In this document: in pieces, positions 1,054 through 16,746 of the stretch | Numbering within the stretch: position 1 is the first letter of the stretch | How the letters are laid out: each line of letters starts with the position of its first letter | NCBI GenBank assembly: GCA_024277795.1 | Contig: JAJRUL010000085.1 | Location: 1 to 22,568, forward strand | DNA from: Candidatus Zixiibacteriota bacterium | GTDB lineage: Bacteria; Zixibacteria; MSB-5A5; GN15; FEB-12 | DNA: 22,568 nt | Direction: 5' to 3' | Position numbers and translations under genes: made by a program | The notes under the pieces: model-generated | The model's input: the letters and a program-made list of their open reading frames with translations, nothing else | Database searches by the model: none | What the model was told of the DNA's origin: nothing

Positions 1054-1749
1054 ATGATGTTCAGTTTAGGGATTGAAGAGATGGAGCCAGGAAAATGGCT
1101 CGGATGGTTTTTTGAAACACCGGGATGCTTTGTTCGTGCAGACTCACCACCTAATCTGGTTACTAAAGCTCCAGAGGCGATGGCTGAATGGAATACTTGG
1201 CTTGATGGTTTCGCCCCTTCAAATAAAAGAAACGATCCAATCGATGTAAAAGTAGTTGAGACTTTTCTCACCAAAGCAAAGGCAAGCGGTTCACAAGTTC
1301 ATGCGTTCTTTGAAGATGACAAACGTCCTCTTTCTCCTCAAGAAATCGATCAAGTAACGTGGGTCTTGGATTGTAGTCGTAACGACCTTACTTCAACGAT
1401 TCAACGAATCCCCTCTCAATTCCTTAATAGCGAAATTGAGAATGAAGTATTCTTATCCCTAAACGGTATTATCGAACATATAGCCTTAGCCGAGTGGTCC
1501 TATTTTGATAAACTTGGATTGGCTTTTGATCGTCGAGTCATGCCTTCTGAACCATTAACAGCGATAAAAACAGTACGAAAACAAACTATCTCACGCTTAC
1601 CTGAACTGACCAACAACCGTAAGATTACTGAACATCAAGGGGAGATATGGTCTGCACGGAAAATAATACGAAGAACAATCTGGCATGAACGTGTCCACAC
1701 CTGGCACTTGCAAAACAGACTCATGGAACTCCTTAATCAAAACAAGTGA
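1054..1749 (+). CDS. Hypothetical protein, possibly DinB/YfiT-like four-helix-bundle metalloprotein (C-terminal W-HERVH-TWH HxxxH motif).
   Basis: 231-aa ORF with an AAGGA RBS about 10 nt upstream of the ATG. Only the C-terminal IWHERVHTWHL motif is recognisable, and it resembles the DinB_2/YfiT His-triad region. TGA stop, then TAA 4 codons later. Confidence 0.55.
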   Translation: MMFSLGIEEMEPGKWLGWFFETPGCFVRADSPPNLVTKAPEAMAEWNTWLDGFAPSNKRNDPIDVKVVETFLTKAKASGSQVHAFFEDDKRPLSPQEIDQVTWVLDCSRNDLTSTIQRIPSQFLNSEIENEVFLSLNGIIEHIALAEWSYFDKLGLAFDRRVMPSEPLTAIKTVRKQTISRLPELTNNRKITEHQGEIWSARKIIRRTIWHERVHTWHLQNRLMELLNQNK

Positions 1750-2743: not shown

Positions 2744-3715
2744 TTATTGCTCAAAACGGAATGGCACAGTCCACCCATTCCAGACAAAAGTCGTATCTGG
2801 AGGATTGCTACCAACGATTGGAATAGCCTGCACCTCTTGGAATGACAAGAGATCCCATATATGAGGACTATTGTGCCTTGTTGCAACCGTATCAACCCAA
2901 TGGGTTGCATCTAATCGGTTCATATCGTAGAGAACGAAACCAGAATCGGATTCTGCCGAAATCAACTGGTAATATGATGTCGGCTTCAATTTTGAACTGG
3001 TAATATACAACAAATCCCCTGCATTTATTAACCCTGTCATCGAAAGACGAATATATTTGTAATCAGTATAACCTGGGACCAATCTAACCTCACCATTTGA
3101 AAGCGTATCATACAATACATATCGCAACTGGGAATACTCCAACTGATCCCCACGAAACTCTACATTGCGATTCGAACGGATAACCATCTCGGCTGGACTT
3201 TCAGGTGCACCACCATTATACCCCCACAATAACCAACCAAGATTTGCTTGAGCATCGCTACCTAACTTTAGGAAGAAACCAACTCGAGTCAAAGCACGTT
3301 TATGCGATGAAAAAGTTGTATCACCATTCTCGATTCTAAGCACTCTGAGATGAAAGAAATCATCAACAATCACCTCAGCATCACGAGCCATCCCAATACT
3401 CCCACCAAAATCCTTGAGGACACGTACTGGAGTAGTATCCACAACTATCGAGCGATACACCGAATCAACAATGATCTTATAGATTGCCGAGTCTCCATCA
3501 ATAGTAAACGGATCTTCCAGAAAGATATTGTCAACACGAAAAAGGTCACGTCCTTCTTCAGTCTGACTTATATAGTCTCGTAGAACATCGGCATCGACCA
3601 CAAAAGTAACACCCCGCTCTTCACATCCACTGAAAGCAAACAGAGAAATAAGTAAAATCAGAGGCAGTATCGACAGGTAAATTGACTTCGCTCTTTCTTT
3701 CAAAACTTTATGCAC
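2744..3715 (-). CDS. Hypothetical lipoprotein, no recognisable domain.
   Basis: 323-aa ORF. N-terminus …[25 protein letters not shown] is a signal peptide plus lipobox. GTG start at 3715 with a purine-rich GGAAGAAGAAG upstream, overlapping the uvrB stop by 8 nt; an alternative TTG start at 3703 is possible. TAA stop. Confidence 0.6.
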
Positions 3716-6351: not shown

Positions 6352-8868
6352 TTGAACCGATCAATTGACAATCGAGCATGGACTGCTCGTATACTGGCGA
6401 TTGCAAAACAATCGACTATTCCCCTTTTCCTGTGCCTGATAGTGTTGGCTATTGCCACTCCGATTAGTGCTCAGCAGGAGTTCCGTGTAGTTGAAGTAGT
6501 CGTCGATGGAAACAGAATAGCAACAGAGGCACTGATCCTTGGAGTTGCTTCCCTTGAAATTGGTCAACCCCTCACACCAACTACAATTTCTGAAACTATC
6601 CGTCGGCTCTATGGGCTGGGCATCTTTTCCGATGTAAGAATTGATGCCGAAGATGTTACTGGCGGATTAAAAGTCTACATCGTTGTCAAAGAATTGCCAA
6701 AACTCTCCGAGTTAAAGTTCATTGGCAATAAAAAGATCAAGGATAAAGAACTCAAGGAACAACTGGGGTTAGGAGTCGGTGGATACATATCCCCATATCT
6801 GATCGAGAAGAAAAAACAAGAACTTAAAAAACTCTATGCAGAAAAAGGGTTTTTTCAGGCTGAAATAACACCACAATTGACCTATTCAGATGACTCTACC
6901 GAAGCCAAGCTTTCTTTCACTTTTAATGAAAAATCAAAAGTCAAAGTGGAAAAGGTAGTCATCAACGGTGCAAAACGCGTCAAAACAAAAGACTTGATTA
7001 AAAAGATGAGGAACCGAAAACGCGGTTTTCTCAAAAGCTCAGACTTTGCCCAAGAAGAATTTAGCGATGACTTGCTGAAAGTCATCAACGAGTATCATGA
7101 ACGAGGGTACATTGACGCTTACATGATTTCTGATTCGATGTACATTGATACAAATAGCAATAAGATGACTATCTTTCTCAATGTCTACGAAGGGCCTCGC
7201 TACTATTTTGGAGATGCAACATTCTCAGGCAATGAAGAGCTTCCCACAGAAGTATTGAAAAAAGCCCTAAAATATAAGAAAGGGCATACCTTCAATTCAA
7301 AAAAATATGATGAATCAATCATGGAAATATCATCTGCTTACTATGAAATCGGTCATCTCCATGTACGAATAGCAGATCAGCGAACCACAAGAGCTGATTC
7401 TATAATCGATATCTCCTATACAATATCTGAGGGTCTCCCTTCTCACGTACAGATGATTAACATCATAGGCAATACCAAAACAAAAGAGCATGTTATACGT
7501 AGAGAAATCTCAACTTTGCCGGGACAAAAGTTTAGCAGGGCTTTGTTGATACGATCAGTCCGTGATGTCATGGCGTTGAATTACTTCGCCAACGTCGAAC
7601 CGATCCCCAGAGACCGTGTGGATGGCGATGTTGATATTGACTTTAAGATAACGGAAAAACAGACGGGTCAGATTTCTGCAGGGGCAGGCTACAATAGTCA
7701 GGATAAAATGGTTGGCACGCTCGGTATGGGAATCCCAAATTTTCGAGGCAATGGTCAAAACCTGAATTTCTCCTTAGATTTCGGCTCAAGACGAAATTCG
7801 TTCTCACTCTCTTTTACTGAACCTTGGCTAGCTGGCAGACCAACCCTTCTCGGAATCAATATGTTTGCTCTTAATCGACGGTGGTTTAATGATTATACTG
7901 AAGGTCGAACAGGCGGATCAATTCGTCTCGGACGACGACTCAAATGGCCTGACAACTATTTCAGAGTCTTTGCATCATATTCACTGGAGAGAAATCGCTT
8001 TTTTGATTTTGATGATTCCTACATAGAGAACAACTCATACAAATCTCAGTACTATTGGAATGATTACACAACAGCAAGCAGAACTGACTCATTAATCGCT
8101 CGCACTGTTTATTCCCCTTACCCGGGTTCTGTACTAAGCTACAATGAGGAAACGCTGACTGCTTCTCGTTTAACAATATCCATTGTCCGTGATTCACGAA
8201 ACCTGCCTCAATTTGCTACCAGTGGATCTAAAATCGCATATAATTTTCAGATGACAGGTTCATGGCTAGGTGGATTCTGGCAATACCAAAAACATGAACT
8301 CACTATAGCAAAGTTCTTCCCTCTCTTCTGGAAACTATCATTTGCAGCCAAAGTACAATACAATGTCATTACAAGACCAAAGGGAGACGATCGAGTTCTC
8401 ATCTCTGATCGATTCACCCCGGGTGGTACTGCATTTGATGGCATTGTGAGAGGATATAATGACGGAACTCTGACTCCCGATTCGTTAGTAACACAATCGG
8501 ACACAACCTTTTTCTACAACGACCCACACGCAGTTGTTGGAGTAGATATCCCTGATGACACATCATTCTCCAGCTACAATACACGAGTTCGAGGGATGTA
8601 TATGCTCGTCGGTAATTTTGAACTACAATTCCCTATTACTGAGGGAAGTATTTACGCACTCGCTTTCTTTGATGCGGGTAACTCATGGCTCTACCGTGGT
8701 GATATAAACCTCGCAAATGATTTATATCGAAGTGCTGGAGTCGGATTCAGAGTGGTGGTACCGGCAATCGGAACAATAGGGTTTGACTTTGCCTATCCGT
8801 TTGATGTACTTGAAGGACAGGATAAAGGATGGAAACCTCATTTTCAAATCGGAACGACATTTAGATAA
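6352..8868 (+). CDS. bamA: Outer membrane protein assembly factor BamA (Omp85 family; POTRA repeats plus C-terminal beta-barrel).
   Basis: 838-aa ORF with a signal peptide (…IPLFLCLIVLAIATPISA/QQ), repeated POTRA-like segments, and a C-terminal barrel ending …HFQIGTTFR with terminal aromatic residues. The start is ambiguous: TTG at 6352 with no SD, and no in-frame ATG/GTG before the signal peptide. TAA stop. Confidence 0.85.
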   Translation: MNRSIDNRAWTARILAIAKQSTIPLFLCLIVLAIATPISAQQEFRVVEVVVDGNRIATEALILGVASLEIGQPLTPTTISETIRRLYGLGIFSDVRIDAEDVTGGLKVYIVVKELPKLSELKFIGNKKIKDKELKEQLGLGVGGYISPYLIEKKKQELKKLYAEKGFFQAEITPQLTYSDDSTEAKLSFTFNEKSKVKVEKVVINGAKRVKTKDLIKKMRNRKRGFLKSSDFAQEEFSDDLLKVINEYHERGYIDAYMISDSMYIDTNSNKMTIFLNVYEGPRYYFGDATFSGNEELPTEVLKKALKYKKGHTFNSKKYDESIMEISSAYYEIGHLHVRIADQRTTRADSIIDISYTISEGLPSHVQMINIIGNTKTKEHVIRREISTLPGQKFSRALLIRSVRDVMALNYFANVEPIPRDRVDGDVDIDFKITEKQTGQISAGAGYNSQDKMVGTLGMGIPNFRGNGQNLNFSLDFGSRRNSFSLSFTEPWLAGRPTLLGINMFALNRRWFNDYTEGRTGGSIRLGRRLKWPDNYFRVFASYSLERNRFFDFDDSYIENNSYKSQYYWNDYTTASRTDSLIARTVYSPYPGSVLSYNEETLTASRLTISIVRDSRNLPQFATSGSKIAYNFQMTGSWLGGFWQYQKHELTIAKFFPLFWKLSFAAKVQYNVITRPKGDDRVLISDRFTPGGTAFDGIVRGYNDGTLTPDSLVTQSDTTFFYNDPHAVVGVDIPDDTSFSSYNTRVRGMYMLVGNFELQFPITEGSIYALAFFDAGNSWLYRGDINLANDLYRSAGVGFRVVVPAIGTIGFDFAYPFDVLEGQDKGWKPHFQIGTTFR

Positions 8869-8893: not shown

Positions 8894-9430
8894 ATGCGAA
8901 AAACCGGAATGACGGTAACAGCAATCGCTGTCACATTATTGGGAGTTTTTCTGCTTGCGGGACAAGCCTCAGCTCAAGGATTAAAAATCGGATTTGTAAA
9001 GGATGAACGACTATTTAGCGAATATCGTTAAGTCCAAAAAGCCCAAGAAGAATTTGAAGTCCTCTCACGTGCTTGGGATGAAGAAGCTCAAGAGAAATAC
9101 GCTGAAATCACTGAGATGATTCAGGATTATGAGAAACAAAAAGTTGTCCTCTCGGACGATGCACGTAAAGAACGTGAAGCGGCTATTCAAGTGAAACAGG
9201 ATGCTCTAGACAACTTCACTCGTTCAGTCTTTGGCCCGGGTGGACAAAAAGAACAAAAAAACTCTCAACTCATGCAACCGTTACTAGATAAGATTCATCG
9301 AGCAATCGAAGCTGTCGCTGTCGATGGAAATTTCGATGTCATCTTTACCCTGCAAGGTATTGGCTACATTAAAGAATCCTTTGATGTAACTGACAAAGTT
9401 CTGGAAAAACTGGCTGACATGGAAGATTGA
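8894..9430 (+). pseudogene. skp: Skp/OmpH periplasmic chaperone, 179-codon frame interrupted by a single in-frame TAA at 9029-9031 (codon 46). The downstream piece is ORF 9116..9430.
   Basis: ATG at 8894 with an AGGAAC RBS. Signal peptide MRKTGMTVTAIAVTLLGVFLLAGQASA/QG, then LKIGFVKDERLFSEYR-TAA-VQKAQEEFEVLSRAWDEEAQEKYAEITEMIQDYEKQ… continues in the same frame to the OmpH-like C-terminus …GNFDVIFTLQGIGYIKESFDVTDKVLEKL. Total length and position (bamA-skp-lpxD) are canonical. The gene may be functional if the TAA is an assembly error or is read through. Confidence 0.7.
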
Positions 9431-9431
9431 T

Positions 9432-10448
9432 TTGCCTTTGAAACTTAGCGAAATCGCCGACACGGTCGGTGGAACGATAGATGGTGATGGTGGTGTCACA
9501 ATATCAGGTGTTGCCCCTATTGAAACTGCCACACCGTCTGAGATCAGCTTTGTTGCTAATCCACGCTATAAACAACATATAGCGACAACAAAAGCGGGGG
9601 CACTTGTGCTCGATCACGAAACGGACTCAAAGGGAATACCTGCGATAAGACACCCTGAACCGTACCTTACTTTCGCTAAGATTATCGATCTGCTCTATCC
9701 TGAAGAACAATTAACAAAGCCTGGCATAGATCAGACTTCAATCGTTGCTGATAATGCTAAGATTGACGATCTGGTTGCTATCGGTCCACTCTGTCATATC
9801 CGAAATTCAGTAACTATCGGAGCAGGGACAGAACTGGTCTCATCAGTATACATCGGTAGTAACGTCACTATTGGTAAGAATTGTCGTCTGTACCCGGGTG
9901 TACGTATAATGGACGGTGTCTGTATTGGGAATAATGTCCGAATACATTCAGCAACAGTAATCGGCTCAGACTGATTCGGCTATGCCGAGTCAAAAACGGG
10001 TTTGAAGAAAATAAAGCAGATCGGATGGGTAGAAATCGATGATGATGTTGAAATTGGATCCAACTGTTCAGTAGACCGCGGAGCCTTAGGACCAACCAAA
10101 ATCGGCCGAGGAACCAAAATCGATAACCTAGTGCAGATTGCGCATAACGTCGAAATTGGTCAACATTCGATTATAGTATCTCAAGTTGGCATTTCAGGCT
10201 CAACAAAAATTGGTAATGGTGTGATTCTTGCAGGGCAAGTCGGAATTGTCGGCCATATTGAAATTGGTGACGGTGCAATTGTCGGTGCTCAATCAGGAGT
10301 GTCTAAATCGGTAAAGGCAGGAGAAAAAGTTTTCGGTTCCCCTGCCCGACCGATCATGCTCACTAAGCGAATAGAAGCGTGCCAAACAAAACTACCTGAT
10401 GTAATCAAACGTATACGCTCGATCGAAGAAAAGATCAAAGATAATTAG
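9432..10448 (+). pseudogene. lpxD: UDP-3-O-(3-hydroxyacyl)glucosamine N-acyltransferase LpxD. A single in-frame TGA at 9972-9974 splits it into ORFs 9432..9974 and 10002..10448.
   Basis: TTG start 1 nt after the skp stop. …[40 protein letters not shown]…[10 protein letters not shown]… is the universal LpxD IGSDGFGYA…KIPQIG…IAHNV region with TGA exactly at the Gly (GGA) position. Both pieces are in the same frame, left-handed beta-helix hexapeptide repeats run throughout, and the catalytic His lies in the downstream piece. TAG stop. Confidence 0.75.
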
Positions 10449-10457
10449 CAAATTGAG

Positions 10458-11039
10458 TTACGTAACTAACCGTTCTTCGATCATCACGATTTTTTCCCAA
10501 TTCTTCTCCATTTTCCCAACTTGATTGAGTACCTCTTTTCCATCCCCTGACTCAGCCGCTTGCCGTATTGCCTGCAAGATGTGCCATTGCTGACGATTCA
10601 CTACCTTCCACTGAGCTATATGTCGTCCAAGCTCACCTACAGTCTGATTGAGTTCTGTAACGATACTCCCCAAATGCCCACGTGTTTCTGAAGATGGTAC
10701 AGTTCCGGATAAATCTCCAGCCGCCATTTCACGCAATCGCATCTGTATCTTTTTTGCTGATCCTGCCCCTCGTAAGACAGGTAAGAGAGCAATAACCGCA
10801 ATCGCTGTAATAGCCGCTACTACTGCTGAAATCATATACGGCATCAGAGTCAATGCGGCAAGCTCAAACGCACTCCCGACCCGAGCGAGACGATCCTCTG
10901 TAAAGATACTGTTAAAGTAAATGATTGTAGATGCAGAGAGTATTATTGTCGCACCAGTCATAAAAAACAGACGTCGATAAATGAGCATTTTTGCCTCATC
11001 AATTTGGTTCACCTCAGATTTCCTACCACTTTTCAACAC
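10458..11039 (-). CDS. Membrane protein with two TM helices plus a HAMP domain and no output domain.
   Basis: About 190 aa. TM1 LIYRRLFFMTGATIILSASTIIYF and TM2 TLMPYMISAVVAAITAIAVIALLPVL, followed by a HAMP-like AKKIQMRLREMAAGDLSGTVP…LGSIVTELNQTVGEL and a short coiled-coil tail. AGGAGG at 11043-11048. Start is GTG 11039 or TTG 11036. TAA stop is only 9 bp from the convergent lpxD stop. Confidence 0.6.
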   Translation of the reverse strand: MLKSGRKSEVNQIDEAKMLIYRRLFFMTGATIILSASTIIYFNSIFTEDRLARVGSAFELAALTLMPYMISAVVAAITAIAVIALLPVLRGAGSAKKIQMRLREMAAGDLSGTVPSSETRGHLGSIVTELNQTVGELGRHIAQWKVVNRQQWHILQAIRQAAESGDGKEVLNQVGKMEKNWEKIVMIEERLVT

Positions 11040-11891: not shown

Positions 11892-12692
11892 TTGTCGAAA
11901 ATTGAGCAAAAAATAACAACAATTAAACGTTTCATTACAGGCCAACTTACAGCCTCAGGGATGAAAGGTTTTGTCTTAGGACTTTCTGGAGGAATTGACT
12001 CGGCAGTCTCTGCAGTCCTTGCTGTTGAAGCGATTGGAAATGACAAAGTTTTGGGAATTATGATGCCATATCGCACATCATCTGACAACTCCCTCAGCGA
12101 TGCCAAAGCTTTGGCAAAACATCTTAACATCTCAACCAGACAGATTGAAATATCCCCGATGATAGATGCCTATTTCCCTACTATTAATGATGACATAAAA
12201 TTAAGGGCAGGCAATAAAATGGCTCGTGAAAGAATGTCGATTCTATTTGATATTGCCGCCGAAACAAGCAGACTCGTACTTGGGACAGGAAATCGCACAG
12301 AAATCTGCCTTGGCTACACTACTTGGTATGGAGACTCCGCTTGCTCAATAAATCCTATTGGGGAATTGTATAAAACAGAAGTGAGAGAAATAGCACGGTA
12401 TTTTGAGCTACCAGACTCTATTATTTCCAAACCCCCATCTGCTGACCTCTGGGCTGGACAAACTGATGAGAAAGAGATTGGTGTCACCTATGAACTGATT
12501 GACCGTCTCTTAGAATGTTTGATTGATCAGGGTACAACCTCGATGTCACAACTTGAAGCTCAAGGGTTCAGTTCAACAGACATCAGCAAAGTCGTTTCAC
12601 TTCTTAACCGCAACTGGTTCAAAAGGCAACTACCCGCTATTGCCCCATTAGGAAAAACAGCAATCCCTCGCCATCTACAGTTGGTAGATTGA
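11892..12692 (+). CDS. nadE: NH3-dependent NAD+ synthetase.
   Basis: …MKGFVLGLSGGIDSAVSAV… is the PP-loop SGGxDS, and …GTGNRTEICLGYTTWYGDSA…PSADLWAGQTDEKEIGVTYELID… is NadE-typical. TTG start at 11892 is the first codon after an in-frame TAG, with a weak SD. TGA stop overlaps the rsmI start region. Confidence 0.85.
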   Translation: MSKIEQKITTIKRFITGQLTASGMKGFVLGLSGGIDSAVSAVLAVEAIGNDKVLGIMMPYRTSSDNSLSDAKALAKHLNISTRQIEISPMIDAYFPTINDDIKLRAGNKMARERMSILFDIAAETSRLVLGTGNRTEICLGYTTWYGDSACSINPIGELYKTEVREIARYFELPDSIISKPPSADLWAGQTDEKEIGVTYELIDRLLECLIDQGTTSMSQLEAQGFSSTDISKVVSLLNRNWFKRQLPAIAPLGKTAIPRHLQLVD

Positions 12693-13411: not shown

Positions 13412-14329
13412 ATGTCAACCTCGGCTATCCGTTTCTACACATTTGATAAGCTGTTCATCGGTTATTGCCTATTGATGGTTATTACCTTACTTGCCTTTGG
13501 GCGACCTCTGTCAAACTATCTGCCAGCGTTACTCTTCTATTCCTCTATGGGAGTACTGGTAGTTCTAATAGCACGATATCTCAGCATTGAACAAAGTGGT
13601 TGGCGAAAACTGCTTCGCTTGTTATATCCCGTCATTCTCTTCACTTTCTTTTATCGCATGACTGGCGATTTGATGCACCTGATTTTTAGTGACTTCTTCG
13701 ACTCACAACTTGTTGCTTTTGAGTTAGCCCTGTTTGGTGTACATCCTACGCTCTATATTGACCAACATCTTCTCAATACACTAACAACTGAGATTATCTC
13801 CTTCTGCTATTTTTCATACTACCTAATGATTCCGGTATTCCTTGCAACGCTCTACTATCAACAAGATTTAGACAATCTAAAAAATTCTCTGTCTGCCATC
13901 TCTATTACCTTCTTTCTCTCCTATATGCTCTTTTTTCTTTATCCTGTAGAAGGACCGCGCTGGCATTTTGCTTCAGAATATATACATCAGGTATCAGGGC
14001 CGGTGTTTAGACGAATGGTTGAATTTGTTATTGCCAATGGGGCTGTTCGCGGTGGCTGTATGCCATCCTCTCATTTCGGCGTTGCTTTGGTTCTGGTGAT
14101 GTATACTTTTCGTCGGAAACAACCGAGCAGGTGGATTTGGCTGTTGTTGACAGTCGGCCTTTCGGTAGGTACTGTATGGGGTCGTTTCCATTATGTTTCT
14201 GATGTTGTAGTCGGGGGTATAATAGGTTTGATATCGACATTAGTTGCCTGGAGATTTGTGGAACCGCATAACTCAGGGCAGAACCAACAGCAAAAAATTA
14301 CTGGAGTTATAAAAAATCATGTGGCCTGA
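13412..14329 (+). CDS. PAP2-superfamily integral membrane phosphotransferase of the AUR1 / sphingomyelin-synthase-like branch (PAP2_3/PAP2_C-like).
   Basis: 305 aa with about 6 predicted TM helices. GGCMPSSHF resembles the SMS D3 C-G-D-x3-S-G-H-T / PSGH motif. WGRFHYVSDVVVGG resembles SMS D4 H-Y-T-x-D-V / SRx5Hx3D. AGGAAA SD with a 5-nt spacer. TGA stop overlaps lgt by 11 nt. Confidence 0.6.
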   Translation: MSTSAIRFYTFDKLFIGYCLLMVITLLAFGRPLSNYLPALLFYSSMGVLVVLIARYLSIEQSGWRKLLRLLYPVILFTFFYRMTGDLMHLIFSDFFDSQLVAFELALFGVHPTLYIDQHLLNTLTTEIISFCYFSYYLMIPVFLATLYYQQDLDNLKNSLSAISITFFLSYMLFFLYPVEGPRWHFASEYIHQVSGPVFRRMVEFVIANGAVRGGCMPSSHFGVALVLVMYTFRRKQPSRWIWLLLTVGLSVGTVWGRFHYVSDVVVGGIIGLISTLVAWRFVEPHNSGQNQQQKITGVIKNHVA

Positions 14330-15162: not shown

Positions 15163-16746
15163 TTACAGCCCACCAGTTACAGTATGCAGGATAACTCCAT
15201 TCCCTCCGACCGCCCATCCTGAGTTATCGTCGATAAAGAAAAGATCATACAATATCTCATTGGTACCACTTGGTTGCTCTATCCATGTAAGTCCATCAGT
15301 CGTATGATAGATTTTCCCATTATCACCACAGACCCAACCTTGGTTGATCGACGAAAATGATACACCCCAAAACTGAACCGAATCAGTAGCGGGCAATACT
15401 GGGGTCCAAAATTGACCTCCATTTGAGGTCGATAGTATTGTCCCTGCCTGTCCAACTGCCCATCCATGCATATTATCAACCATATCAATATCTCTCAGCT
15501 CAAATCCTGGAATAGCAAACTGCTCAACCCAATTGAGACCACCGTCGCTAGTGAAGAAAATAGATCCACCAAAACCAACGACCCAACCGCTATCCTGACT
15601 AACGAAGTCAACTTCAGTAAGATTACGTCCTGATCCTGTCGGTCTTGAAACCCAACTTGTCCCTCCATCATTAGTAAATAAGACAGCATCATTCCTGCCA
15701 ACAACCCATCCCAAAGTATCGTTCAGGAAGAATAGCCCTTCATACTGCGATGTGTCACCTGTCGTCAGTTTAACCCAGTTCGCTCCGCCATCAATAGTCT
15801 TAGAAACTAATCCTGAACCTCCAGCAATCCAACCAACTTGATTACTTGTAAACTGAACATCTCCTAGAGCTTTAGTTATTCCATTTGACTGAAGACTCCA
15901 CAAGTCACCACCGTTACTCGTATTAATAACATACCCTGTTTGTTCAAAAGCACTACTTACAATACCTACAGCCCAACCTCTGTTTGCATCCAGTATATGA
16001 ACTGCTCTCAAATCTCTTGCTTCAGGATTTGACTGCGGTAACCACGATACAACAGTAAGCGAACAAGGAATCACAATAGGTGTATTCCCCCCCGTCGGAG
16101 AATCTAATATGATGGTGTCCACAAAAACACCGATTGGTAGCGACGATACATCAGCCCCAACTGACAATGTTGTTGGCCCTTCCCCTGCAGAAGGAGTCAC
16201 GTGTAGCCATGAACTGCTCCACGTTGTCGTATACTCAAAATTTGATGCACTCCCGCTCGTGAGACTAATGGATTGATCAGGAGGATTACCCGCTCCTGTT
16301 GCTATTACAAATACTAAAGATTGTGTGCTAACCTGCAGAATGTGCTCTATTGTAAGATTTATCTCCAATGGAATACGGGAATTGACTGCCTCCGATGATG
16401 TAACCCAGACTGTCTCAATGTAGACACCCTCATCAAGTAAACCAGTTGAGATGTTTACACCGAAGCTATCAGTAGCAACTCCCGATGTGTTGCCAAAGAG
16501 TGTCATCCAACTAACGGATTCTGTCGCTTGATACGTCAAGTCACCATCACCCTCATTGGACACAACAATCCACTGTGGTTGAGGATTTACCTGATATGGC
16601 ACAGATCTATCCAACGTAGCTGGGCGAAGTAAAATCCGAGTTGGCTTTGAATCAGTACTATCTGAAGCACAGCTAGATAATAAAGTGACAATTCCAATGA
16701 ATAATACGAGATGTATGAGTCGGTTCAGCAGTGTTGAGTGATCCAA
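15163..16746 (-). CDS. Secreted lipoprotein with two N-terminal Ig/BACON-like beta domains and a C-terminal 7-bladed Ycf48-like (BNR/Asp-box) beta-propeller.
   Basis: TTG start with a GAAGG SD. Signal plus lipobox LLSSC. Two ~100-aa repeats each end in …P..I.LT(I/V). Then seven blades with GW(A/V)VG … T(S/N/T)DGG..W motifs, for example TSDGGLNWVEQ, TNDGGTSWVSR, TIDGGANWVKL, TSNGGQFWTPV and TTDGLTWIEQ. TAA stop. Confidence 0.7.
   Translation of the reverse strand: MDHSTLLNRLIHLVLFIGIVTLLSSCASDSTDSKPTRILLRPATLDRSVPYQVNPQPQWIVVSNEGDGDLTYQATESVSWMTLFGNTSGVATDSFGVNISTGLLDEGVYIETVWVTSSEAVNSRIPLEINLTIEHILQVSTQSLVFVIATGAGNPPDQSISLTSGSASNFEYTTTWSSSWLHVTPSAGEGPTTLSVGADVSSLPIGVFVDTIILDSPTGGNTPIVIPCSLTVVSWLPQSNPEARDLRAVHILDANRGWAVGIVSSAFEQTGYVINTSNGGDLWSLQSNGITKALGDVQFTSNQVGWIAGGSGLVSKTIDGGANWVKLTTGDTSQYEGLFFLNDTLGWVVGRNDAVLFTNDGGTSWVSRPTGSGRNLTEVDFVSQDSGWVVGFGGSIFFTSDGGLNWVEQFAIPGFELRDIDMVDNMHGWAVGQAGTILSTSNGGQFWTPVLPATDSVQFWGVSFSSINQGWVCGDNGKIYHTTDGLTWIEQPSGTNEILYDLFFIDDNSGWAVGGNGVILHTVTGGL

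Follow-up and report, generated by a model that had tools for sequence, protein, structure and literature searches.

The window analysed here is one complete contig of 22,568 nucleotides from a deposited, unannotated Candidatus Zixiibacteriota metagenome-assembled genome (MAG), within which 22 genes have their own stop codon. Two neighbouring genes, skp, for a periplasmic chaperone of the OmpH family, and lpxD, for UDP-3-O-acylglucosamine N-acyltransferase, are each interrupted by one in-frame stop codon (Table 1). Both interruptions would be best explained by a pair of unprogrammed single-base nonsense substitutions read under the standard code (table 11), namely a change of GGA to TGA in lpxD and, most probably, one of GAA to TAA in skp; of these the lpxD change is the likelier to be an error or variant and the skp change the likelier to be real. 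This combined explanation is given a probability of about 0.6; this figure and the graded wordings below are judgements and not measurements, and the split between error and real allele is one that we infer.

The interrupted frames of lpxD and skp

Direct reading and translation of positions 9960–9986 gave ATC GGC TCA GAC TGA TTC GGC TAT GCC, that is I-G-S-D-stop-F-G-Y-A. As the initial annotation had claimed, the TGA stands at the invariant Gly of the GSDGFGY motif and is one G-to-T step from GGA; the changed G lies in a C[G]G context. Gly, encoded by GGN, was found at this position in 80 of 80 orthologues from genome loci, in which all four GGN codons occur (GGA in 17); these orthologues span Zixibacteria, Bacteroidota, Proteobacteria, Planctomycetota, Chlamydiae and Rokubacteria. 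Three loci from Flavobacteriia (L064, L069 and L075) carry a second LpxD-like match, of motif GxDAFYYK, with Ala at the focal position. Ala is therefore tolerated there in a paralogous subfamily, though never in the orthologues.

The lpxD frame comprises 338 codons and ends at a natural TAG (10446–10448), with both halves in one frame. When Gly was put back, the product scored 355.7 bits against the NCBIfam equivalog model TIGR01853 (cut-off 242.5) and 385.6 bits against NF002060 (cut-off 207), and was matched by the Pfam LpxD N-terminal domain and Hexapep repeats. Residues 5–335 aligned to the solved structures 6UEC, 3PMO (Pseudomonas), 2IU8 (Chlamydia) and 3EH0 (E. coli), which bears out the earlier description of an LpxD recognisable from end to end. 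The two fragments taken singly scored 143 and 184.6 bits, below the TIGR01853 cut-off. By whole-protein match to the equivalog model and to solved structures, over the uridine-binding N-terminal domain, the left-handed beta-helix and the C-terminal helix, the product thus belongs to LpxD; an uninterrupted frame that includes the catalytic His is not present. His238 of the IAHNV motif, which we take as the counterpart of His239, the catalytic residue in the E. coli enzyme, was said to be cut off by the stop and does lie downstream of codon 181. The truncated product would be a protein of 180 amino acids and 18.9 kDa without the catalytic His and without the C-terminal trimerisation helix. As judged by these matches, the locus is lpxD by descent and, as written, a null allele. 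A two-piece LpxD made by internal restart was considered and rejected, as no convincing ribosome-binding site precedes TTG at 10002, the first start codon in frame, and initiation there would lose the invariant FGY.

The predicted product of skp has a hydrophobic, signal-peptide-like N-terminus and an OmpH domain (Pfam PF03938, E = 1.8e-27, residues 31–173), and orthologues at the same position in relatives are 47–57% identical to it. The upstream nonsense codon that had been reported was confirmed and is codon 46, so that signal peptide and OmpH domain do not share one open frame. As written, Skp is a 45-residue stub with at most 18 residues past the predicted signal peptide; the next in-frame ATG is codon 75, and restart products would be without a signal peptide. 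At the position of the stop, relatives have Ala (GCN, 22 of 38) or Glu (GAA or GAG, 11 of 38), in the context EY[KRP]-[A/E]-W-QKAQE. The G-to-T step from GAA to TAA is the sole single-step route from a residue observed there, and the skp change was most probably of this kind.

Table 1. Positions of the interrupted genes and of other features of the window
Feature	Position	Strand	Remarks
lpxD (UDP-3-O-acylglucosamine N-acyltransferase)	9432-10448	+	TTG start at 9432; interrupted at codon 181
In-frame TGA in lpxD, followed by T	9972-9974	+	codon 181; invariant Gly of GSDGFGY
Hairpin, 9 bp, UGAUUCGGC-UAU-GCCGAGUCA	9972..9992	+	begins at the lpxD UGA
His238 codon, IAHNV motif of lpxD	10143-10145	+	downstream of the premature stop; from alignment to solved LpxD structures
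skp (OmpH-family periplasmic chaperone)	8894-9430	+	frame interrupted at codon 46; natural stop TGA 9428-9430
In-frame TAA in skp, followed by G	9029-9031	+	codon 46
bamA	6352..8868	+	intact; NCBIfam TIGR03303 BamA 440.8 bits (cut-off 297); first gene of the conserved bamA-skp-lpxD block
hyp193	10458-11039	-	193 amino acids; between lpxD and ssb
Probable lipoprotein	2744-3715	-	323 amino acids; adjoins uvrB
Protein downstream of acs	1054-1749	+	231 amino acids
Secreted/lipoprotein-like protein	15163-16746	-	527 amino acids; BACON-type domain and Ycf48/BNR-like beta-propeller repeats

Comparison with related loci

For comparison, 160 related loci were fetched, 80 genomic and 80 metagenomic, and neither lpxD nor skp is stopped or split in any of them. 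An internal stop or frameshift was likewise absent from 440 orthologous gene instances (125,229 codons) in 11 gene families of 62 Zixibacteria loci; the asterisks reported among these instances lie only upstream of the true bamA and ssb start codons. The comparison of orthologous loci that had been proposed thus places the stop in this window only, with uniformly intact relatives, and the contig with its two stops is, on this count, an outlier among related loci. Gene order across Zixibacteria runs uvrB(-), rplU, bamA, skp, lpxD, hyp193(-), ssb(-), nadE, rsmI, pap2, lgt, BNR(-), and the window is identical; lpxD is syntenic in every Zixibacteria locus inspected, with the same genes in the same order on both flanks. 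By this shared order the interrupted gene is the syntenic orthologue of lpxD and no spare paralogue.

The closest relatives of LpxD and BamA come from Zixibacteria MAGs, at 70% identity or less. A second assembly of the same species was not found in the protein, genome and metagenome collections, where scans with LpxD gave nothing above 70% identity. Exact-match look-ups with four window proteins, and with the identical BamA, yielded no entry either. The protein collection holds a BamA of 808 amino acids that is 100% identical to that of the window, whereas it holds no intact, 100%-identical LpxD. Since an intact LpxD would have been the top match, as BamA was, the lpxD stop stands in the public record.

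Departures from residues kept by at least 85% of the other sequences were counted for 11 genes (Table 2). In each of the ten genes other than skp the window stays under the 95th percentile of relatives (2.1–6.7% of columns), and no frameshift was seen in any of the 11. An error-rich contig was rejected on these grounds. In lpxD, the stop is the sole singleton departure from an otherwise invariant column among 54 sequences. The fraction of deviations is below the median, both halves are equally clean (two deviations before the stop, one after), and the pairwise-distance residual is unremarkable (z = -0.15). Because no other sign of decay was found in lpxD, its TGA is very recent in evolutionary terms, and the gene has spent no measurable evolutionary time free of selection. 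A genuine, long-standing loss of lipopolysaccharide (LPS) acylation, one of the possibilities raised in the initial annotation, is contradicted by this complete lack of decay.

Table 2. Departures of the window proteins from conserved columns
Gene	Deviations/conserved columns	Fraction	Rank
uvrB	9/423	2.1%	13 of 17
rplU	3/45	6.7%	15 of 35
bamA	15/326	4.6%	15 of 38
skp	14/67	20.9%	2 of 45
lpxD	3/135	2.2%	38 of 54
hyp193	1/28	3.6%	24 of 36
ssb	2/62	3.2%	8 of 40
nadE	3/113	2.7%	26 of 30
rsmI	4/101	4.0%	9 of 31
pap2	3/87	3.4%	27 of 29
lgt	7/116	6.0%	12 of 21

Skp is the gene that stands out, against a median of 4.5% and a 95th percentile of 18% for its family. Four departures of the window sequence are singletons, against one at most in every other sequence, and the pairwise-distance residual of the window sequence (z = 2.4) ranks 2 of 28. 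Many departures need two or three base changes (W47V, E57L, Q69Y, K90A and A119K among them, W47 being near-universal and next to the stop), so they represent real lineage divergence and not base-calling noise. The intact Skp orthologues of two related loci (L009 and L105) are about equally divergent. Downstream of the TAA there is neither a frameshift nor a second stop in 132 codons, which makes a long-dead skp unlikely. The best reading of these data is that skp came under weaker constraint in this lineage and then, recently, acquired its stop. Skp is a chaperone that is dispensable in E. coli. Given the independent evidence of relaxed constraint, we consider it likely that the skp stop is a real allele.

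Decoding and origin of the two stops

The 22 window genes end in TAA (14), TGA (6) or TAG (2). Of the TGA-ended genes, ssb (with its DDDLPF tail) stops at the same residue as 42 of 42 relatives and nadE at the same residue as 28 of 31, and the natural ends of skp and pap2 are shared with 25 of 34 and 10 of 13; the end of bamA, a TAA, is shared with 49 of 53. Code 25 had been excluded at the outset because TGA ends ssb, nadE, skp, the PAP2 gene and mntP; this argument holds, with one more gene added to the list and with C-termini that agree with those of orthologues. A changed code (UGA as Gly in code 25 or as Trp in code 4), or selenocysteine at the UGA, would suit a UGA placed exactly at an invariant Gly and at the start of a hairpin, but TGA is an authentic terminator in more than a quarter of the window genes and none of these codes explains the second stop, a TAA; this reading is effectively refuted. 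Stop-codon usage and C-termini matching those of orthologues were also the grounds on which code 25, code 4 and a reassignment of TAA were each rejected. The likeness to code 25 of Gracilibacteria and Absconditabacteria is that UGA occurs where homologues have an invariant Gly. Here, in contrast, UGA terminates, the organism is a Zixibacterium, the roughly 7,000 codons contain one such UGA, and the gene next to it is interrupted by UAA. Taken alone, a UGA where Gly is invariant is no indication of code 25.

For selenocysteine, no Rfam family matched the window at E ≤ 1, and hence no selenocysteine insertion sequence (SECIS) family; the candidate was rejected on this result, on the nature of the sole hairpin, described next, and on a focal position that is always Gly, never Cys or selenocysteine, in the orthologues. 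The region at the lpxD UGA has a folding z-score of -1.39. Its hairpin, whose loop is only 9–11 nucleotides from the UGA, is also found in GGN relatives: 49 distinct relatives form 4–9 of the 9 pairs, mostly 6–8, and TGA in place of GGA shifts the energy by only 0.2 kcal/mol. The hairpin was therefore rejected as a recoding or bypass signal, being a by-product of G-F-G-Y-A-E-S coding. Bypass of the gene 60 type and frameshifting were dismissed because homology runs on in the zero frame past each stop. No notable fold was found near the skp TAA (z = 0.04), nor any inverted repeat there. The lpxD hairpin does gain one pair through the G-to-T change, as it would by templated mutation at a quasi-palindrome, but the skp site has no inverted repeat and this idea is speculation.

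Programmed readthrough of the UGA, another of the initial suggestions, finds no support, since relatives have no stop at either site, structure specific to the window is absent, and the termination contexts are strong. The stops might also be real but leaky, if low-level readthrough by near-cognate tRNAs, or a weak suppressor tRNA from another part of the genome, yielded enough LpxD (and Skp). Both frames are open and conserved beyond their stops, the tRNA-Gly that reads GGA is near-cognate to UGA, and UGA is the leakiest stop codon in bacteria. UGA-U and UAA-G, however, are said (by Poole, Brown and Tate in 1995) to rank with the contexts in which termination works best in E. coli, readthrough of UAA is very rare, and two different suppressors would be required. 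The base after the in-frame TGA, a T, also follows the real terminators of skp, ssb and mntP. ARAGORN found no tRNA in the window, no conserved downstream structure is present, and with no relative stopped at these sites there is no hint of a recoding site under selection; general suppression of UGA would moreover extend 6 of 22 proteins and add 48 codons to the critical DDDLPF tail of SSB. Leaky stops are accordingly judged very improbable, and no rescue mechanism for skp or lpxD is evident in the window sequence. We give slightly less credence still to a redundant lpxD copy decaying beside a second intact lpxD, or skp-lpxD pair, elsewhere in the genome. Some fetched loci do carry a second LpxD-like paralogue, the three with the DAFYYK motif described above, but every Zixibacteria locus has a single lpxD at this position, of which the interrupted gene is the syntenic orthologue, that gene is free of the decay expected of a dispensable copy, and no second LpxD-like match lies within the flanks of any Zixibacteria locus.

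Of all possible single-base changes in the coding sequence of the window, 4.5% create a stop. Two stops produced by random error would imply about 45 errors across the contig, with about 10 missense changes at conserved columns, and none such was seen. The earlier assertion that two stops are unlikely by chance is upheld by this stop yield and by the 440 gene instances free of internal stops: the pair exceeds chance and marks an unusual event, be it error or real allele. The further claim, that both changes could be G/C-to-T, is compatible with the sequence, but as evidence of oxidative damage it is weak because G-to-T is the class with the highest stop yield in any case (12.8% overall, 21% in skp and 12% in lpxD) and only the lpxD site lies in C[G]G. 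In library artefacts caused by 8-oxoguanine, the CCG>CAG context has the highest oxidation potential, and allele fractions are below ~20% (PMC3616734). Damage of this type (G>T, or C>A), whether from shearing in vitro or from a deficiency of GO repair, could explain both stops as same-strand G-to-T changes, and the lpxD site (C[G]G to C[T]G, the CCG>CAG context) fits. The skp site, T[G]A, is not a preferred context, its ancestral codon is uncertain in that Ala is commoner than Glu in relatives, and artefacts arising in vitro stay at low allele fraction.

The guanine-plus-cytosine (GC) content of the window is 42.6%, against a median of 51% for the other Zixibacteria loci, and GC at third codon positions (GC3) in skp, 0.33, is the lowest of 59 sequences. 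With a GC3 of 0.33–0.38, the contig stands at the lower end of the phylum's GC range. Where the window departs from conserved residues, the change is mostly Tyr to Phe (TAT to TTT) or Leu to Ile (CTN to ATN), for example at uvrB 87, bamA 167 and 695, rsmI 101 and 117, and lgt 173, 224 and 248. This suggests a lineage-wide drift from GC to AT, and the AT shift is compatible with GC-to-AT pressure in vivo.

Of the four explanations listed in the initial annotation, sequencing or assembly error and very recent inactivation survive; readthrough and long-standing LPS loss are unsupported. We hold that the lpxD TGA is probably a consensus error or a non-representative, unfixed variant, which would have been caught in a single, low-redundancy metagenome assembly, and that in skp weaker constraint would have come first and a genuine stop afterwards. 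An error in lpxD is plausible because error is independent of gene essentiality, and local assembly errors that corrupt genes are documented in uncurated MAGs (PMC7111523). The likeness to such errors lies in isolated wrong bases within genes, on a short contig from a single assembly broken inside unique genes. The contig ends fall in the housekeeping genes acs (5' end) and sufB (3' end), from which we infer low coverage or strain heterogeneity rather than repeats. MAG errors, however, are usually indels or unsupported stretches and hit codons at random, and here there are two substitutions, both of them stops, with nothing else amiss in 22 genes. Several further points weigh against an error in lpxD. 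The stop-free 125,229 orthologous codons indicate that consensus errors are rare in comparable assemblies, and at a stop yield of 4.5% it is improbable that two errors in a stretch of 943 bp would both create stops. In an error-rich patch, extra single-step missense anomalies would be expected, and lpxD has none. Artefacts from 8-oxoguanine, with their low allele fraction (PMC3616734), would need very low coverage to enter the consensus. Because Skp is divergent, one stop at least would seem to be biological, and to explain the pair wholly by artefact becomes less tidy. The bases themselves rest on one assembly.

Alternatively, both stops may be real and very recent nulls, skp having drifted and then been stopped and lpxD having been lost afterwards; lipid A N-acylation would just have been lost, or the contig would represent a short-lived, dead-end clone, and in-vivo oxidative G-to-T mutagenesis, for instance from a GO-repair defect, is a possible cause. 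Sequencing error cannot produce the lineage-specific acceleration of Skp, stop-creating consensus errors are absent from the comparable gene instances, same-strand G-to-T fits both changes with that in lpxD at a readily oxidised C[G]G, and the lineage is AT-shifted. Loss of LPS through mutations in lpxA, lpxC or lpxD, premature stops included, is known in Acinetobacter baumannii (PMC5955468). Against this, lpxD is intact at the syntenic position in all 62 Zixibacteria loci and unrelaxed in the window, and bamA, lgt and the PAP2 gene nearby are all intact. An allele that kills or severely harms the cell should not come to prevail in the consensus of a population; LpxD is essential in nearly all diderms, and few species are known to be viable without LPS. 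The prior for a fixed lpxD null is low, since the gene is conserved without exception in the phylum, bears no blemish but the stop in the window and is needed by all but a few diderms. We therefore regard a pair of real nulls as unlikely, and take the same doubtful view of the lpxD stop by itself as a real, recent, fixed null allele. The preferred account, of an erroneous or unfixed base in lpxD beside a real stop in skp, involves nothing new in kind, for nonsense pseudogenisation, MAG consensus error and G-to-T changes of the 8-oxoguanine type are all already known.

Gene neighbourhood and known parallels

The genes around skp and lpxD are closely packed. The TTG start of lpxD comes one base past the skp TGA (9428–9434), the nadE stop and rsmI start overlap by 4 nucleotides (12689–12692), and pap2 and lgt overlap by 11 (14319–14329). 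With skp and lpxD packed this tightly, a premature skp stop would also abolish any translational coupling into lpxD. For bamA, the true start probably lies some 30 codons past the listed TTG. Between lpxD and ssb, hyp193 codes for a protein with a hydrophobic N-terminal region and no Pfam domain; it is kept at the same place and in the same orientation in most Zixibacteria loci (36–51% identity) and is apparently a conserved gene of unknown function specific to this phylum. The probable lipoprotein adjoining uvrB has no Pfam match and has counterparts of about 43% identity beside uvrB in two loci (L004 and L015). There is no Pfam match, either, for the protein downstream of acs. The BACON/BNR protein is kept downstream of lgt in relatives, at an identity of only 30–38%. 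Further interruptions at the 3' end of the window were considered and rejected, as the gap in open reading frames after sufC is sufB running off the end of the contig.

A literature search on Zixibacteria and stop codons returned nothing relevant. The nearest parallel is found in LPS-deficient A. baumannii, in which premature stops in lpxA, lpxC or lpxD leave a truncated product (PMC5955468). In both cases a single premature stop falls in an otherwise intact lipid A acyltransferase gene and the catalytic region is lost. The A. baumannii alleles, however, arose under strong colistin selection in a species that survives without LPS, and were verified in isolates, whereas the present case consists of a single uncurated MAG contig, and neither a selective agent nor any sign that Zixibacteria can live without lipid A is known.

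As it stands, the finding matters mainly for data quality. The deposited contig encodes a broken lpxD and a broken skp, and automated annotation or metabolic reconstruction would wrongly score the organism as lacking LpxD. If the lpxD stop were fixed, it would be a rare case of natural lipid A loss in an environmental diderm, which the sequence does not favour over a very young or erroneous base. It is improbable, in our judgement, that both stops are real in a viable natural population, that is, in a Zixibacterium that has BamA and an outer membrane and either does without LpxD or depends on site-specific readthrough of UGA (as Gly) and UAA for just sufficient LpxD and Skp; in the former case, if true, it would add to the three known species a diderm that lacks lipid A by nature.

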